Both the position numbers and the translations under genes were made by a program. The notes below the pieces were generated by a model, which saw only the letters and a program-made list of their open reading frames with translations, did no database searches and had not been told where the DNA came from. This document shows positions 5,125 to 59,690 of a stretch of 64,000 nucleotides of DNA, one piece after another (within the stretch, counting starts at the first letter, position 1; each line of letters starts with the position of its first letter). Source of the stretch: a virus; IMG/VR virus record IMGVR_UViG_3300044624_001039, positions 5,475 through 69,474 of that record. One strand, given 5' to 3'.

Positions 5125-6675
5125 TTATTTTTGGTTCTTTAGGTAAATTTCAATCTGTTCTCTTTCGTGATCCGACAACAAATCAAGGTCATATTCGCCC
5201 TTTTCTATCTTTTCAACCAAATATTTGATATATTTTTGGTTATATAAATAGGTATCTGATTGGCCCTTCTGAACCTCAATCCATTTATTTCCGTCATACT
5301 TATATACACGATTTGGTAATGCATCTACTCGTACAAACAAATCACCCTTATTAGCTTCATTTGGAAACTTAATACCAAAGTTAGTGCTGATAGAACGTTG
5401 ACTATCTGGTTTTAGCACGAATATATCTGGACGTAAACTCTTTAGTGCATCTAATTGGTAATGCCTATCTTCAAATATTACATATCCACCTTCTAATTCC
5501 TTATAAGGTTTTTGTTGTTCCAATACTATTTGTTCTGCTGTATCTTCTTCAACTTCTTTTGGTGCAACCATTGGTTTAGTATCAAAATGAACAAAAGGTT
5601 TAGTTAAGTATGGATGTTGTTCCAGTATAGACTTTTCGGGTTCGGGTTTGGTAAATTCCCAATCAACATTGTCTATATTATCCTTCACATCACAATTTTT
5701 ATTAGGACAGAAAGGACCTATTCCGGGTGCATCAATTAACTCAGTGCCACACATGTAACAATTAATAGGTTCTTTAGGAGATCCCGCCATTGCAATAATC
5801 TGTTTAACTTGTTCATCAGTCAACGGACCATCATCTGGCTCATATGCAGGTTCTGTGACAGTGGGAGTCGTTGTTGGTTCAGTCCCTAGAGGGCTGTCAC
5901 CCTCCTCTTTATCCCATTCTTTACTTGCGTTGGCGGCAAGTACAAGTGCAATAGCTAATGGGTCAAACACAATAACCAATAAGATAATAACCCAACGAAC
6001 AGCAGATTCAAGCGTATTGTTATCAGCATCATCACCGTATATTAATGCGGCAATATATTTGATGGGACCTACCTCAGCTTCTATCTTACGATTTTCAGCC
6101 GCAATAGGTGCTCGTTCTTCATTTAGTTTAGCAATTTCTTTTTGTGCGTCACCAATATCTTTTTGTATTTTAGCACGTTCACCTGCTTGTTGTCTACGAA
6201 TTTGAACAGCACGTTCAGCACTATTTTCACTATCACCGCGACTTAATCGTTGGTCAACTTGATTGTCCATTTGAGTTAATGCTTTTCGTGCTAACTCAAT
6301 GTTATCTCTTTGTGTTTTTATCTTCTCGTCATACAATGCTAATTTAGCTTGACTATCACCTGAGGTAATACCTTGATCCATATGTGCTTTACTTAAAAAG
6401 CCAAAGATACCCATACTGGTTAATAATGCTAGTGCAACAACAGCAGGTACTAGATATAATTTTAATAACCAACTAGTACGATACCAATATTTGCGTAGCC
6501 AAACAGTTGCGGTAATCTTTCCTACTTCTAGAATACCTCCCATAATAATAACAGGAATAACCGCACCTGCAAAGATAGCGGTTAACCCGATAATACTATA
6601 CCAGGCTGCTACCGAACTAAGCGATAGTGCCACTAATAGTGTGAGATTTGAGAATGATAAAAATTTAAGGCGCAT
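5125..6675 (-). CDS. Multi-pass membrane protein with coiled coil and Zn-ribbon
   Basis: Several hydrophobic helices, a long coiled coil, CYMC...CPNKNC and an acidic linker. Confidence 0.6.
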   Translation of the reverse strand: MRLKFLSFSNLTLLVALSLSSVAAWYSIIGLTAIFAGAVIPVIIMGGILEVGKITATVWLRKYWYRTSWLLKLYLVPAVVALALLTSMGIFGFLSKAHMDQGITSGDSQAKLALYDEKIKTQRDNIELARKALTQMDNQVDQRLSRGDSENSAERAVQIRRQQAGERAKIQKDIGDAQKEIAKLNEERAPIAAENRKIEAEVGPIKYIAALIYGDDADNNTLESAVRWVIILLVIVFDPLAIALVLAANASKEWDKEEGDSPLGTEPTTTPTVTEPAYEPDDGPLTDEQVKQIIAMAGSPKEPINCYMCGTELIDAPGIGPFCPNKNCDVKDNIDNVDWEFTKPEPEKSILEQHPYLTKPFVHFDTKPMVAPKEVEEDTAEQIVLEQQKPYKELEGGYVIFEDRHYQLDALKSLRPDIFVLKPDSQRSISTNFGIKFPNEANKGDLFVRVDALPNRVYKYDGNKWIEVQKGQSDTYLYNQKYIKYLVEKIEKGEYDLDLLSDHEREQIEIYLKNQK

Positions 6676-55063: not shown

Positions 55064-55719
55064 TATAGTTCCTGAAAGACATGACTACCAACGTGACATA
55101 GATTGATACTAGTATCCATCCAAGCTTGCATTCCAGTACTACGGGCCCTAGTGAAGAAGCTTAAATCTTCTGGTAGATAGATATCACCCTGACGCATTTC
55201 ATGGAAGTAGTGATAGCTGTTATCATATTCCTGTTCAGTTGGGTTATGAGTAGTGCTTTCGTTTGTTGGTGTATATTTAAGATCTGGGTATTGTTTTGCA
55301 ATACGAATGAATACGTTACGGTGAATGAGACTGAAGCCGATACCAATTTTATCTATAGCTACTAGATCACCTTCACGTTGTGGTGGTTGAGTGAGTGTGA
55401 AGTTCCATTTTAGTGGTATAGTTTTCATTGGGTAAGCACCGCATACCATTTCTTTATTGTGATTAAGAAGTTTTAGTACATCATCAGCTTCAAATCCAAC
55501 ATCGCTATCTAAAAAGAATAGATATTCAAAATCAGTATTGTTTATGAAGAAGTTAGCTATACGGCTGCGACCACGACTTATTAAACTTTCGTTTGCAAGT
55601 GTGAGCATACCGTGATCTATGTTATTTCTAACAAATTGTTTACCCAATTTAAAGAGGCTGTTGGTTGTTTTATCTGATACTACTCCGCCGTAGCAAGGCA
55701 TTCCTATTAATATTGACAT
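55063..55719 (-). CDS. GT-A-fold glycosyltransferase-like protein
   Basis: IGMPCYGG, ESLISRGR, FLDSD, GAYP.K, GIGF.LI.R, EDLSF, HVG. Confidence 0.75.
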   Translation of the reverse strand: MSILIGMPCYGGVVSDKTTNSLFKLGKQFVRNNIDHGMLTLANESLISRGRSRIANFFINNTDFEYLFFLDSDVGFEADDVLKLLNHNKEMVCGAYPMKTIPLKWNFTLTQPPQREGDLVAIDKIGIGFSLIHRNVFIRIAKQYPDLKYTPTNESTTHNPTEQEYDNSYHYFHEMRQGDIYLPEDLSFFTRARSTGMQAWMDTSINLCHVGSHVFQEL

Positions 55720-55780
55720 GTAGATATTTAGTAGGAAATATCTGTTGTCAAAATATTATTGACATTTGTTATTACTTTTT

Positions 55781-56356
55781 CTATTGAAATATTTCAGGAT
55801 GTGCTTTACCAAATATTTTAATATATTTTCCAGCCATCATATCCGCTTCTGCTTCTATTGGACTACCCGGATAACTATCACCCGGCTTAATCATATTTAA
55901 TTCACCCTGACGTACATGAACCAATTCATGGAATACTGTACGAAATATATCTACTAAATTTCTATTAGCACAATAAACCCATACTTCACCTGTTTCTGGA
56001 TTATGTCTTCCAGTATGATGACCCTCTTGTGCTTCTTTACTATCATAACTAAACTCTATCTTTGGTGTACTTTCTAAATTTAACTTCTTACTTGTCCAAG
56101 CAAGAAACTTCTGTACAATAGGATTATTATTCAAATCTGCTTGACCATCTTCATCTAGTTTACCTTTAATCCAATTGTCTGGAGTTTTGTGATATTTTCT
56201 AACAAATAAGTCATGTAATGCATCACCGGTTATACGATGCTTCTTTGCTATACTTCTCATTAGTTTATCAATGGTATTATAGTCGTGTTTCTCTAAGCTA
56301 GGAAGTTTCTTAGCTAGTTCACTTGCGGCTGATTCGTATAGTTCTATTGCTCTCAT
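55781..56356 (-). CDS. Zincin-like metallopeptidase domain protein with capsid-targeting-like leader
   Basis: True start likely MRAIELYE, just after ATAAATA (56362-56368); HELVH...EAEAD. Confidence 0.65.
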   Translation of the reverse strand: MRAIELYESAASELAKKLPSLEKHDYNTIDKLMRSIAKKHRITGDALHDLFVRKYHKTPDNWIKGKLDEDGQADLNNNPIVQKFLAWTSKKLNLESTPKIEFSYDSKEAQEGHHTGRHNPETGEVWVYCANRNLVDIFRTVFHELVHVRQGELNMIKPGDSYPGSPIEAEADMMAGKYIKIFGKAHPEIFQ

Positions 56357-56368
56357 ATTAGTATTTAT

Positions 56369-56464
56369 GCTCACTTTAAACAGAGTCTGGCGTAACTCTG
56401 AACCAGGCAGCAGCCGCCTGCTTGACGCCATTAACCGTTGACGACAACGTGCCCTAAGGTGGGT
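56369..56464 (+). ncRNA. Candidate structured RNA (multi-stem junction with pseudoknot)
   Basis: GC-rich intergenic stretch with stems CAGAGU/ACUCUG, CAGGC/GCCUG and CGUUG/CAACG, closing stem GCUCACUUU/AAGGUGGGU, and loop UGGCGU complementary to ACGCCA. Confidence 0.6.
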
Positions 56465-56901
56465 TAGTTACACCAAGAAGTTTTAGCTTCTCCGTAGTAT
56501 TCTCTTGCAAATCCATTCTGTATTAACATTGTTCTTAAACTTTGTCCATCAAGTAATATATCACCCAATACACGTCCACCATACTTATCCCAATCAGCAA
56601 TAGCTACTTGACGTTTTTGTGCTTTAGTTATAGCATTTTTTGTGAATGCAGAAGCAGCCTGACCACGTTGATCTTCAGCTGGACATTGCGCTCTATGACC
56701 TTTTTCAGGTGTATCAACACCAAATACACGAATACTTAATTCTTGTTTTAATGGTGGAGGTAAGAACGGTGCTTGAAATGCTACAGTATCGCCATCAATA
56801 ACTCTAGTGATTGTAAAATCATATACATTCATTGGTTTTTGTTTTTGTGCAAATGCTATAGTAGATATTGCTAATAATATGATTGTTATTATTTTTTTCA
56901 T
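56464..56901 (-). CDS. Secreted thermonuclease (SNase family)
   Basis: Signal peptide; VIDGDT, IRVFGVDTPE, DKYGGRVLG. Confidence 0.9.
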   Translation of the reverse strand: MKKIITIILLAISTIAFAQKQKPMNVYDFTITRVIDGDTVAFQAPFLPPPLKQELSIRVFGVDTPEKGHRAQCPAEDQRGQAASAFTKNAITKAQKRQVAIADWDKYGGRVLGDILLDGQSLRTMLIQNGFAREYYGEAKTSWCN

Positions 56902-56911
56902 TTAGTTGTCT

Positions 56912-57793
56912 TTATAAAATATTTTTGTAATCAATAAACTTTGCATGTCTATCTTGTAATCCACGTAGTGCTGGATTAATCTTTTTTGTTACTGCCTTTG
57001 TATCGTTAAAGTTATTTATATGTGGTTTAACTCTTGTTTGCCAATACCATACTGCAATCTTGGCTGCGATATCAGGTCTTTCTGCTAATTCAGGTTGATT
57101 TAATAAATCAATACCTAATGCTTGACTAGCCATACGATAGTTATCACGTCCGGTCAATTGAATGAAGCCACGACCATGATATTTTTCTCCATCACCTACA
57201 TATTTATTACCTAATATCTTTGCAGTACGTGGTGCATATTGGCGATCATATTTCTTAGCAAAATATCCTTGACCAACACTTTTTTCTTTTAGTCTACTAA
57301 AATTCCATGATTCATGTTTAGTTTGAGCCATAAACTGTGCTAATTCAGTACCAACTATACCGGCAGCTACCGCGGCTTTATGTAATAAACTTTCAATTTG
57401 AGGATAGTTACTTAATGTAGTTATGGGAGCTTCTTTTTGTGGTTCTATCGGTGTGTCTTTATTAACAGTATTGTTAGGTTTTGTATCTCTAGTGCCTAAT
57501 GCAGCCATGCCAGCTAACCCACCAAGAAAACCTCTACGACTTAAATCTTCTAATACTTTACGATTTTTTACTTTACTAATCTCAATACTTATTGGTGTAT
57601 TAGTTGTTTTTGCTCTAAATATATTATCAGTCTCACGTACCCCTGGCTTAAGTTCAGATGCTACAATTAAGAATCTTGCTCTATTCTTTTTTATGCCAAC
57701 AAACTCACCAACTAATACTTGATAGTTGGGATAATTTGGTGTCAAATCTACTTTAGGATTTGCTTGTTCGGTAATAAACTCTGTAGCTCTCAT
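56912..57793 (-). CDS. GH19 lysozyme/chitinase-family protein
   Basis: FMAQTKHES, GDGEKYHGRGFIQLTGRDNY, A.WYW, TKKIN; likely start MRATEFITE; internal SRRGFL. Confidence 0.88.
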   Translation of the reverse strand: MRATEFITEQANPKVDLTPNYPNYQVLVGEFVGIKKNRARFLIVASELKPGVRETDNIFRAKTTNTPISIEISKVKNRKVLEDLSRRGFLGGLAGMAALGTRDTKPNNTVNKDTPIEPQKEAPITTLSNYPQIESLLHKAAVAAGIVGTELAQFMAQTKHESWNFSRLKEKSVGQGYFAKKYDRQYAPRTAKILGNKYVGDGEKYHGRGFIQLTGRDNYRMASQALGIDLLNQPELAERPDIAAKIAVWYWQTRVKPHINNFNDTKAVTKKINPALRGLQDRHAKFIDYKNIL

Positions 57794-57797
57794 TATT

Positions 57798-58718
57798 TTA
57801 TGATGTTGAATAACCTGCAGCCGCAAGTTGAAATCTACCAGTACCTACACCTGTAGTATCAGTAGCAACTACACCTGTATTACTTACTAAATTAGTCATT
57901 GATAAGCCATTAACTCCATTAATAGATCCATATCCAAATATAGCCTTATCCCTACCATACCCAGTGGCTGCTAATCGGTTTCTTGCTGTACCTACACCGG
58001 TAACATCATTACTAACAACGCCTGTATTTGATACTAGATTGGTTATTGATGTGGGTCCGTCTCCATACCCAAATATAGCTTTATCAGTTCCATAACCTGC
58101 AGCCGCTAATGCCACTCTATCAGTACCGACACCTGCAGTATCTGTGGCTACTACACCTGTGTTTGATACTAGATTGGTTACCCTAGTAGTTCCGTATCCA
58201 AATATAGCTTTATCACCGCCATAACCTGCGGCTGCAAGCCACCATCTTGCTGTACCCACCCCGGCAACATCATTACTAACAACACCAGTGTTTGATACTA
58301 GGTTAGTCATTGATTTAATGCCTGTGCCGCTGGTGCCATACCCGAATATAGCTTTATCATAGCCATATCCCGCGGCAGCAAGATAACTTCTAGCAGTGCC
58401 CACACCTGTAGTATCATTACTAACAACACCAGTGTTTGATACTAAGTTAGTCATAGATAAATATGTAAGAGCTTGATTGTATCCAAAACCAAATATGGCT
58501 TTATCAGTTCCGTAACTTGCGGCTGCAAGGCCCTCTCTAGCAGTACCAACACCACTCGTATTTGTAGCAACAACACCAGTGTCTGATACTAAGTTGGTTA
58601 TTGCTGTAAATGTAGTAATAGCAGTGGCACCATATCCAAAGATTGCTTTTGTTGTTCCCGGTGGGGGAGGTGGACTATAAGTAAATCCACCACTTAAAAC
58701 CATTCCACTAAATTGCAT
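57798..58718 (-). CDS. Six-bladed repeat protein, family B
   Basis: Six KAIFGYG-x-TNLVSNTGVV..D..GVGTAR..LAAAGYG repeats; PPPPP linker. Confidence 0.75.
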   Translation of the reverse strand: MQFSGMVLSGGFTYSPPPPPGTTKAIFGYGATAITTFTAITNLVSDTGVVATNTSGVGTAREGLAAASYGTDKAIFGFGYNQALTYLSMTNLVSNTGVVSNDTTGVGTARSYLAAAGYGYDKAIFGYGTSGTGIKSMTNLVSNTGVVSNDVAGVGTARWWLAAAGYGGDKAIFGYGTTRVTNLVSNTGVVATDTAGVGTDRVALAAAGYGTDKAIFGYGDGPTSITNLVSNTGVVSNDVTGVGTARNRLAATGYGRDKAIFGYGSINGVNGLSMTNLVSNTGVVATDTTGVGTGRFQLAAAGYSTS

Positions 58719-58742: not shown

Positions 58743-59690
58743 TTAAGTAAATGAATAACCTGCGGCTGCTAAGCCTAATCTTGCAGTACCTACACCTGTC
58801 GTATCAGTAGCAACAACACCGGTGTTTGATACTAGATTGGTCATTGACACCTTTACAGAAGTAGTACCATATCCAAAAATAGCTTTATCAGTGCCATATC
58901 CTGCAGCCGCAAGACTATCTCTAGCAGTACCAACACCAGTTGTATTATTGGCTACAACTCCGGTGTTTGATACTAGGTTGGTTATTGCTGTTACTGATCC
59001 ACTATTTCCATATCCAAATATAGCTTTATCTGTACCATAACCTGCGGCTGCTAATCCAGTTCTAGCAGTACCTACACCTGTCGTATCAGTAGCGACCACA
59101 CCTGTATCTGATACTTTGTTAGTTACTGATACCACCTGACTTGAAAAAGTAATTCCATAACCAAATATTGCTTTATCAGTACCATACCCTGCGGCTGCTA
59201 GAAAATATCTTTCAGTACCGACGCCTGTAGTATCTGTAGCAACAACCCCTGTGTTTGATACTTTGTTAGTAATTGATTGCGTAATACCTGTGTCAGTACG
59301 AACTCCATATCCAAAAATAGCTTTATCAGTTCCGTAACCCGCGGCTGCTAATGAATTTCTAGCAGTACCAACACCAGTAGTATCAGTAGCAACTACACCG
59401 GTGTTACTTACTAAGTTGGTCATTGATTGTGATCCTGCTCCTGTATCATTGCGACCATATCCAAATATAGCCTTGTCCCCGCCATAATTTGCGGCTGCAA
59501 GATAATATCTAGCAGTACCTACTCCTGTAGTATCAGTAGCAACAACTCCTGTATTTGATACTAAGTTGGTTACTGCTGTAATTCCTGACGCAACACCATA
59601 ACCAAAAATAGCCTTTTGCGTTGGTCCGCTAAGAGGGGGTGGTGAACTATAAGTAAATCCACCACTTAAAACCATTCCACTAAATTGCAT
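58743..59690 (-). CDS. Six-bladed repeat protein, family B
   Basis: Six repeats; same MQFSGMVLSGGFTYS leader. Confidence 0.75.
   Translation of the reverse strand: MQFSGMVLSGGFTYSSPPPLSGPTQKAIFGYGVASGITAVTNLVSNTGVVATDTTGVGTARYYLAAANYGGDKAIFGYGRNDTGAGSQSMTNLVSNTGVVATDTTGVGTARNSLAAAGYGTDKAIFGYGVRTDTGITQSITNKVSNTGVVATDTTGVGTERYFLAAAGYGTDKAIFGYGITFSSQVVSVTNKVSDTGVVATDTTGVGTARTGLAAAGYGTDKAIFGYGNSGSVTAITNLVSNTGVVANNTTGVGTARDSLAAAGYGTDKAIFGYGTTSVKVSMTNLVSNTGVVATDTTGVGTARLGLAAAGYSFT

Follow-up and report, generated by a model that had tools for sequence, protein, structure and literature searches.

Which kind of element fills a GC-rich gap between two genes of an AT-rich phage genome, and on what might it act? 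The question is raised by a 64-kb stretch of viral DNA (positions 5,475 to 69,474 of the IMG/VR record IMGVR_UViG_3300044624_001039; this whole stretch is called the window here). In it, a 107-nt gap separating two minus-strand genes is filled by an element with a conserved core at 56369-56464 and a GC content of 0.48-0.52, compared with about 0.31-0.38 nearby. An initial annotation had described this element as a pseudoknotted structure of the plus strand, antisense to its neighbours. We show here that it belongs to an RNA family with a common fold, a defined strand, a variable genomic context, a low copy number and complementarity to ribosomal RNA (rRNA). Thus, large freshwater phages carry a widespread, previously unnamed family of folded RNAs. 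Concerning its function, the conserved segments suggest a phage RNA that pairs with host rRNA, a reading to which we give a probability of about 0.4.

A covarying RNA family on the strand of its neighbouring genes

Relatives of the element were fetched via the 191-aa protein encoded next to it (80 loci) and with 17 nt of the middle hairpin as query (34 loci). In these relatives, too, a conserved element occupies the gap, and a regular expression for its two end motifs returned 34 distinct copies. Two further collection scans with three motifs led to at least 170 distinct matches in at least 259 loci on IMG/VR phage contigs; the family counts given below cover the matches listed. The matches in L239 (two), L240 (one) and L258 (two, one of them a true member sharing the label) were dropped from the 170 as chance, which leaves 165. 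L032 and L081 are without the GGCUKCU loop and were left out where this loop is needed, leaving 163. Read on the gene strand, the members come in two forms, a short class 2 of ~80 nt and a long class 1 of ~104-120 nt, to which the window copy belongs. The hallmarks of the family are a 5' segment CCUUAGGRCC, a hairpin with a GGCUGCU loop, a 3' hairpin, a tail AAGUGAGC and covarying stems. Three alignments were used: A2 contains 28 long-class sequences out of 36, after removal of near-duplicates and of the two intermediates L094 and L229; A3 holds 28 of the 35 shortest sequences; and A4 holds 100 class-2 loci (L116-L215) in 97 distinct rows, all of them fetched by pattern, so that a count of 100 of 100 is given by construction. 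The class-1 covariance model R1, run with filters off, finds exactly one copy in the 64 kb, at full length on the minus strand (107.6 bits, E 5e-30), the second-best match reaching 10.7 bits. By this score, by covariation and by strand the window element is a member of the family.

Folding of the single window sequence gave minimum free energies of -30.3 kcal/mol for the plus strand (z -0.71) and -30.7 kcal/mol for the minus strand (z -0.48); such folding is no better than chance and decides nothing. The fold is accepted as real because of the comparison with relatives. A4 is paired to 80%, compared with 29-50% in slid controls, and contains 349 double-change cells versus 138.5±10.3 after shuffling (score 0.571 versus 0.214), with none of 500 shuffles as high. 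In the class-1 alignment A2, 95% of the cells are paired versus 31-42% in slid controls, and 77 double-change cells compare with 22.8±4.0 in shuffled alignments, again with none of 500 as high. The family thus has a fold of three to five hairpins with a conserved unpaired 5' segment and conserved loops, and the loops are far more conserved than the stems.

In the window, the whole R1 match comprises 104 nt (56367..56470, minus strand), and the UAA stop codon of the upstream gene (56464..56466) directly adjoins its 5' end. The conserved unpaired 5' segment L1, ACCUUAGGGC, lies at 56451..56460. The closing helix P0 joins its 5' strand CAC (56459..56461) to GUG at 56372-56374; read on the minus strand, its outer pair is C-G in 19 rows and U-G in nine, and the other two pairs are invariant. 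Hairpin Pa (56435..56451) consists of CGUUG, a UCGU loop and CAACG with an outer C-G pair and a bulged A. Its cells in A2 (helix 2) are paired to 92.9%, with G·U at 24-33 in four rows and U·G at 20-36 in six. A joining strand UGGCGUCA follows at 56423..56430. Hairpin P2 (56404..56420) has a 5-bp stem CAGGC/GCCUG and the conserved 7-nt loop GGCUGCU (56409-56415); 97% of its cells are paired, and G-C/C-G swaps amount to 66 to 31 and 58 to 30. Hairpin P3 (56381..56400; A2 helix 6) combines CAGAGU/ACUCUG with the loop UACGCCAG and has changed on both sides in five of six pairs. The conserved 3' tail AAAGUGAGC (56369..56377) contributes the GUG that closes P0, and it is kept also in a divergent second copy that was found without requiring the motif.

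The three hairpins had already been read from the window alone. Their strings (CAGAGT..ACTCTG, CAGGC-AGCAGCC-GCCTG and CGTTG-ACGA-CAACG) are all present, and covariation in the relatives bears them out. The homologue search proposed at the time recovers the family in phage contigs, with stems that covary. A 9-bp closing stem with G-U pairs on the plus strand fares differently: its two strings, GCTCACTTT at 56369-56377 and AAGGTGGGT at 56456-56464, are there as described, however the stem never covaries and only CAC/GUG of it is kept. A proposed pseudoknot between TGGCGT and ACGCCA (56425-56430) holds as far as the complementarity goes. On the gene strand, GGCGU of the joining strand (56425-56429) can pair with ACGCC of the 3' hairpin loop; this candidate helix (A2 helix 4) is paired in 27 of the 27 rows with letters and never varies, so that covariation neither supports nor refutes it. 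A pseudoknot may therefore exist in the class of the window.

The strand is given by wobble pairs. Read on the minus strand, the covarying helices of A2 contain 32 G·U against a single A·C, and P2 across the 163 sequences contains 47 against one; in addition, the covariance models match every member on the strand of the neighbouring genes. Wobble asymmetry and model matches together assign the RNA to the minus strand and make it sense to its neighbour genes, and the plus-strand assignment of the initial annotation has to be reversed. Of the 163 sequences, 99 fold more stably as the minus strand. The plus-strand assignment had been argued from the long closing stem. This stem does contain A·C when read on the minus strand, as does a second long-range pairing, but both consist of motifs that are invariant and never covary. 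A helix finder that treats the strands alike by allowing both G·U and A·C gave 169 versus 162 and was rejected as a strand test. Its A·C cases come from invariant long-range motif pairings and from end extensions, and for this reason only covarying helices were used for the strand.

None of the known families tested accounts for the element. Rfam 15 gave no match at the gathering score, neither in the 64 kb of the window nor in 117 kb from 16 related loci, which agrees with the earlier view of a structured non-coding phage element without a known family; a likeness to SAM-I junctions that had been pointed out finds no support in Rfam. Around the site, relaxing the threshold to E<=10 returned two chance-level matches only, CRISPR-DR49 (16.8 bits, cut-off 41) and a human long non-coding RNA model. 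ARAGORN found no transfer RNA or transfer-messenger RNA gene in the window, and the large-subunit rRNA model RF02541 had no match in the phage record. A fragment of an rRNA gene was considered and rejected, since the similarity described below is antisense, extends over 12-24 nt and is not collinear across the element. Of the readings offered by the initial annotation, ribozyme, packaging RNA and single-stranded DNA structure gained no evidence in their favour. Phage genomes often contain small ribozymes, and a compact, conserved and possibly pseudoknotted element could in principle be a small self-cleaving ribozyme or a riboswitch of a new class. We regard this as highly improbable: no Rfam ribozyme or riboswitch matches even at E<=10, the conserved bases lie in hairpin loops and the tail and not in junctions, and the downstream gene is not constant.

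The family is phage-specific and nearly absent from cellular genomes. Model R1 detects a copy in 37 of the 80 loci that were fetched through the neighbouring protein alone, and model R2 finds one or two copies in each of five phage records of 264-525 kb. A complete phage genome of 353 kb with terminal repeats contains a divergent second copy (G002:C1:76940-77017, equal to L269:241-318) that was found by model only; its 5' segment is degenerate (CCUUAA-AC), and its middle loop, 3' loop and tail are kept. Among 185,579 bacterial and archaeal species genomes there were five pattern matches, two of them confirmed by model. Both confirmed members lie on MAG contigs labelled as Bacteroidota, one on a 14.6-kb contig of a Lishizhenia metagenome-assembled genome (MAG; L263) and one on a 183-kb contig of a Haliscomenobacter MAG (L265), and these contigs may be phages binned with their host or may hint at the hosts. 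The remaining cellular matches were not confirmed as members: L264 reached 16.8 bits with R1, the one model applied to it, and looks chance-like by eye, and L261 (R1) and L262 (R1 and R2) gave no match with the models named. A blastn search of the GenBank phage collection with window positions 55700-57000 gave no match. Lake-water DNA runs contain the stretch, and several of them may be the source sample.

Genomic context and exchange between phages

The element is set closely between genes of its own strand, and these genes differ from phage to phage. A same-strand open reading frame (ORF) ends 4-27 nt before CTTAGG in 109 of the 170 matches, and a same-strand ORF begins within 30 nt past the element in 88 of them. 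The flanking proteins form 39 clusters upstream and 46 downstream. A riboswitch or leader should be followed by a constant class of gene; here, 131 downstream neighbours fall into the 46 clusters, the two largest with 31 and 21 members. The nearest relatives of the window (L002/L003, about 2895-2990) are 90% identical to it over 1.6 kb, yet carry a class-2 element at the same spot, and identity resumes inside the conserved end motifs. Conversely, the window copy (56358-56470) shares 92-95% identity with the elements of L082 and L109, two loci with unrelated surroundings. Phages seem to swap the element as a cassette, the breaks falling within its conserved ends, and the replacement of class 1 and class 2 by each other at one site argues that both do the same job. 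Varied flanks and cassette exchange favour an independent gene over a regulator of one particular gene.

How the element is transcribed bears on a second explanation, in which it acts in cis as an intergenic or 3' untranslated region (3'-UTR) element of the messenger RNA, by protecting against 3' exonucleases, marking a processing site, insulating transcription units or uncoupling or recruiting ribosomes between genes. In that case the resemblance to antisense rRNA would either be left over from an rDNA fragment that was once captured or help to tether ribosomes in cis. The tight spacing to the stop codon before it and the start codon after it fits such a role. No promoter motif is conserved upstream of the element across the family. 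In the window, no promoter or terminator signal beyond chance stands beside it, with no terminator-like site in 55700-57100. As a promoter of its own was not found, the element is probably an intergenic or 3'-UTR part of a polycistronic transcript. Within 60 nt downstream, a sigma-70-like promoter is present in 31-42 of the 163 sequences and a T-rich run in 51, as expected at the end of a transcription unit. The four RNA libraries provide contigs only, which cover mostly the flanking genes of relatives and do not give strand, ends or level of the element, and stretches that they leave uncovered carry no information; one of these contigs spans the nuclease gene, a 76-nt variant of the element and the 191-aa gene of a relative, a weak sign of co-transcription that could also stem from DNA carry-over. 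Other observations do not fit with a cis function. Genomes of 260-520 kb contain only one or two copies, whereas a general stabiliser or terminator should accompany many genes. The flanking genes differ between loci, a purely structural roadblock would not need loops that are far more conserved than the stems, and the terminator scan found no G+C hairpin followed by a U-run, the last hairpin being followed by ~12 unpaired bases unlike in an intrinsic terminator. Taken together, we consider a function in cis unlikely, even if it deserves to be kept in mind.

The window belongs to a record of 69 kb with a completeness estimate of ~20%; it is AT-rich, and its genes include a family-B-type DNA polymerase, a DNA ligase and glycosyltransferases. 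Directly upstream of the RNA lies a gene for a secreted-type SNase-like nuclease of 145 aa (56464..56901, minus strand; PF00565, E 3.8e-12). The downstream neighbour (55781..56356, minus strand) encodes the 191-aa protein, and its start codon lies 12 nt past the tail. A longer listed ORF reaching to 56431 is an artefact that runs through the RNA, as relatives all start at an ATG of the MRAIELY type, at 56356 in the window. The 191-aa protein has no Pfam match and one weak PHROG match (phrog_10346); a HELVH motif near its C-terminal part looks zinc-protease-like by eye, and its relatives are found next to the RNA, on the downstream side in 21 loci and on the upstream side in 10. Ahead of the ATG of the gene that follows the RNA, by 5-10 nt, a motif (G/C)ATAAATAC is found in the window (56361-56368) and in many relatives, with no Shine-Dalgarno sequence at that ATG. 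We take this motif to resemble a T4-type late promoter; the window has no excess of ATAAATA, with 17 occurrences on the minus strand where 14.6 are expected. The commonest downstream neighbour of the family (31 loci, for example L235, L118 and L138) is a protein of ~90-108 aa behind a sigma-70-like promoter, presumably similar to GapR/DUF2312-type DNA-binding proteins of Alphaproteobacteria and their phages. In L134, L193 and L236, large proteins adjoining the RNA carry repeated linkers of the QGVAEG type, which may be protease cleavage or domain-linker motifs. Further away in the window, two adjacent paralogous genes for proteins of 306 and 315 aa (57798-58718 and 58743-59690, minus strand) contain glycine-rich repeats of ~36-40 aa (…TNLVSNTGVV..D..GVGTAR..LAAAGYG.DKAIFGYG…).

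Complementarity to ribosomal RNA

The conserved unpaired parts of the RNA are antisense to rRNA, for which the E. coli rrn operon, fetched by accession, served as reference. The 5' consensus ACCUUAGGACCG is exactly complementary to E. coli 23S 1920-1931, a stretch that we take to run from the 3' strand of helix 69 into the start of helix 70, and single members reach 15 nt of exact complementarity; in the window copy, L1 is complementary to 23S ~1921-1931 with one G·U. The commonest 3' loop is complementary to 23S 1929-1937 (9 nt), and the conserved unpaired segments together cover 1917-1937. The class-1 3' loop is instead complementary to 23S 1971-1978 (8 nt), in the window through UUACGCCA at 56388-56395, made up of the last stem U of P3 and the first seven loop bases. 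The joining strand, in its class-1 family form AGGCGUCA, is complementary to 23S 1827-1834 (8 nt). Since 23S 1830-1833 and 1972-1975 presumably form helix 67, the candidate pseudoknot would mirror this helix in antisense. The middle loop with its closing pair is complementary to 16S 519-527, the 530 loop. Pa stands where an antisense counterpart of 23S helix 69 would lie, and its class-2 equivalent resembles antisense helix 69 at up to 22 of 24 positions.

Across the family, the complementarity to 23S exceeds what is found in shuffled elements and in other parts of the rRNA. Of the 165 elements, 162 contain exact complementary runs of 10-15 nt, compared with mostly 8-9 nt in sense orientation, and ~4% of shuffled elements reach 12 nt somewhere in rRNA on either strand. 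The best local alignments match antisense 23S 1910-1933 at 22 of 24 positions, with a score of 36 versus 21.6±2.2 in shuffles (maximum 30). Among 106 combinations of rRNA window and strand, antisense 23S 1841-2000 comes first with 18.35 nt per element (median 0.96), and it is still first after masking of the three motifs that the searches required (7.04, the next being 2.16). The 3' loops of types a, b and e make up 133 of 163 elements, and their commonest best matches in 23S are 1928-1937 for type a (70 of 96), 1971-1979 for type b (23 of 34, counting 1971-1978 as well) and 1968-1976 for type e (two of three). At two variable positions facing a U of the rRNA, A and G alternate among the elements, with 74% A and 19% G at one position and 77% A and 10% G at the other. 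The divergent second copy of the 353-kb genome keeps CGCUACCUU, which continues the antisense rRNA register. 23S 1917-1937 is identical in E. coli and in a flavobacterial genome. The pair 1827-1834/1971-1978 differs by covariation in the flavobacterium; thus, the class-1 joining strand and 3' loop fit a helix 67 of the E. coli type, unlike what the two Bacteroidota MAGs hint at. RNAduplex predictions of the element against 23S windows returned long gapped duplexes everywhere (-60 to -82 kcal/mol) and were discarded as uninformative.

The same likeness can be read from the other side. On the plus strand, as RNA or single-stranded DNA, the element would be a miniature mimic of 23S domain IV, with a helix 67-like pairing, a helix 69-like hairpin, CCUAAGG and a 530-loop-like loop, acting as decoy for a factor or nuclease. 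It does read there as sense rRNA, in the order helix 67 strand, short hairpin, helix 69-like hairpin and CCUAAGGU, and the invariant pairings CACCUU/AAAGUG and CCACCU/AGGCGG are better on the plus strand, with A·C on the minus strand. Nucleases that could be decoyed exist among the rRNA-cutting defence systems, as a recent preprint describes (bioRxiv 10.64898/2026.07.14.738597). However, the G·U excess on the minus strand in the covarying helices (32:1 and 47:1) contradicts this reading, and the plus-favouring pairings never vary and thus carry no weight. Furthermore, the flanking genes are all on the minus strand and no plus-strand promoter beyond chance lies beside the element, so that we regard such a mimic as very improbable.

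Alternatively, the RNA may act in trans with loops that bind a protein or an RNA other than rRNA, as sponge, scaffold or regulator, the complementarity to rRNA being inherited and not used. Three hairpins with conserved apical loops on variable stems would suit this function, as would the existence of five 3' loop types of which two are without an rRNA match, and a conserved tail AAAGUGAGC whose longest rRNA match, 7 nt, is not notable. Against it, a neighbouring protein gene is not conserved, and no complementary partner was seen in the window or in five large genomes, where exact matches to the 5' motif occur only in the elements themselves and matches with one mismatch stay at control level. 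Moreover, several different loops that map to different parts of one rRNA domain are hard to obtain by descent alone. A binder of this kind therefore appears quite unlikely to us.

Pairing of the loops with host rRNA is the reading that we prefer, tentatively and on the grounds of complementarity, and a number of points weigh against it. The local alignment score of the window's own copy against antisense 23S is 18, which is chance level; this copy is too diverged for a significant alignment, therefore the link to rRNA rests on the family. Loop types c and d, 30 of the 163 elements, score at shuffle level against antisense E. coli 23S (a 10-nt match of type c to flavobacterial 23S 402-411 was within chance and set aside). 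The collection scans required CCTTAGG, GGCTKCTG and AAGTGAGC, so that the invariance of these motifs in 154 of the 259 loci follows from the way they were collected, and the sequences are related, so that counts are not independent events. In four intermediate members the 5' CCUUAGG is, by eye, paired with a downstream CCUAAGG and not free. A discrete RNA is presumed here, and the transcript data are contigs of RNA libraries. In mature ribosomes the proposed targets are buried or engaged in pairing, and there is no obvious gain to a phage from harming ribosomes that it needs. Finally, the initial annotation had noticed that CAGCAGCCGC matches the 16S 530 loop, possibly by chance. The match is real, a 10-nt identity to E. 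coli 16S 519-528, and with 9-11 nt it would not be significant alone; it is one part of a wider rRNA complementarity, on the strand opposite to the one then considered.

Proposed action and comparison with known systems

If the RNA does pair with host rRNA, its action could be as follows. Large lytic freshwater phages carry, in one or two copies, a structured RNA of 80-120 nt that lies on the strand of its neighbours and is probably transcribed with them, and whose folded hairpins display the unpaired 5' segment and two conserved loops. It would act in trans by base pairing, with the 5' segment on 23S 1920-1931, the 3' loop on 1929-1937 or 1971-1978 depending on its type, the joining strand on 1827-1834 and the middle loop on the 16S 530 loop. 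The likeliest target would be nascent or unfolded rRNA, because these sites are buried or paired in mature ribosomes, and the outcome would be an interference with, or some other steering of, host ribosome assembly or use during infection. A more specific version is possible, although rather doubtful on the sequence data at hand: an 'anti-ribosomal' RNA of large lytic lake phages, with a scaffold whose three or four antisense stretches clamp 23S domain IV strands (helices 67, 69 and 70) and the 16S 530 loop on nascent or damaged rRNA. It might block host ribosome assembly, mark rRNA for double-strand-specific cleavage and nucleotide recycling, or splint or shield sites from rRNA-cutting defence nucleases; the first of these is the action described above, and the other two reach further. 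Defence systems that cut rRNA upon infection exist, as the preprint on them shows (bioRxiv 10.64898/2026.07.14.738597), and a protective or splinting role is therefore conceivable.

If pairing with rRNA holds true, it would be a new viral way to act on translation, by an RNA antisense to the most conserved parts of the ribosome, for which no natural precedent is known in bacteria or phages. Since the target parts are identical in E. coli and a flavobacterium, one RNA could serve many hosts. The idea would be open to direct test in laboratory strains, and it would draw attention to antisense sites on rRNA that were chosen by natural selection. Even without this mechanism, a phage-specific RNA family of this size, with strong covariation and no entry in Rfam, that is swapped between phages as a cassette is of interest in itself.

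More than 10,000 candidate structured-RNA motifs, termed csRNAs and some of them highly expressed, have been reported from IMG/VR contigs (Fremin et al., 2023; PMC10690425). Like the family described here, they are conserved intergenic folds that were obtained by comparative analysis of IMG/VR and have no Rfam family. They differ in that the accessible text mentions no motif with rRNA complementarity, its one statement on rRNA being that no csRNA overlapped an rRNA prediction, and the supplements of that catalogue may list this family (PMC10690425). Within the literature available in part, no description of a phage RNA complementary to 23S helix 69-70 was found, with the same supplements (PMC10690425) as a place where the motif may be listed. 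Small RNAs derived from 3'-UTRs or encoded by phages are similar in that they stem from the ends of coding transcripts, are ~100 nt long and have conserved seeds in loops; however, those known target messenger RNAs and are mostly from temperate enterobacterial phages, and we found no report of rRNA complementarity among them.

Short conserved stretches complementary to rRNA are present between or before genes in the calicivirus TURBS and the T7 gene 10 'epsilon', where they are thought to tether ribosomal subunits. These systems use one short single strand directed to small-subunit rRNA and act in cis on the next start codon, whereas the RNA described here is directed mainly to 23S domain IV, displays its segments on several hairpins and is often followed by a gene behind its own promoter. 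Archaeal and eukaryotic C/D and H/ACA guide RNAs are likewise small and structured, with 9-15 nt complementary to universally conserved rRNA. The boxes of these guides were not seen by eye in our family and the Rfam snoRNA models did not match. The two 23S-complementary stretches overlap at 1929-1931 rather than flanking a target base. To our knowledge, no guide-RNA system of the C/D or H/ACA type exists in bacteria or phages. Synthetic antisense oligomers against functional rRNA sites, including helix 69, can inhibit ribosomes. They share the kind of target proposed here, but they are man-made and short, while the phages carry a natural folded RNA.

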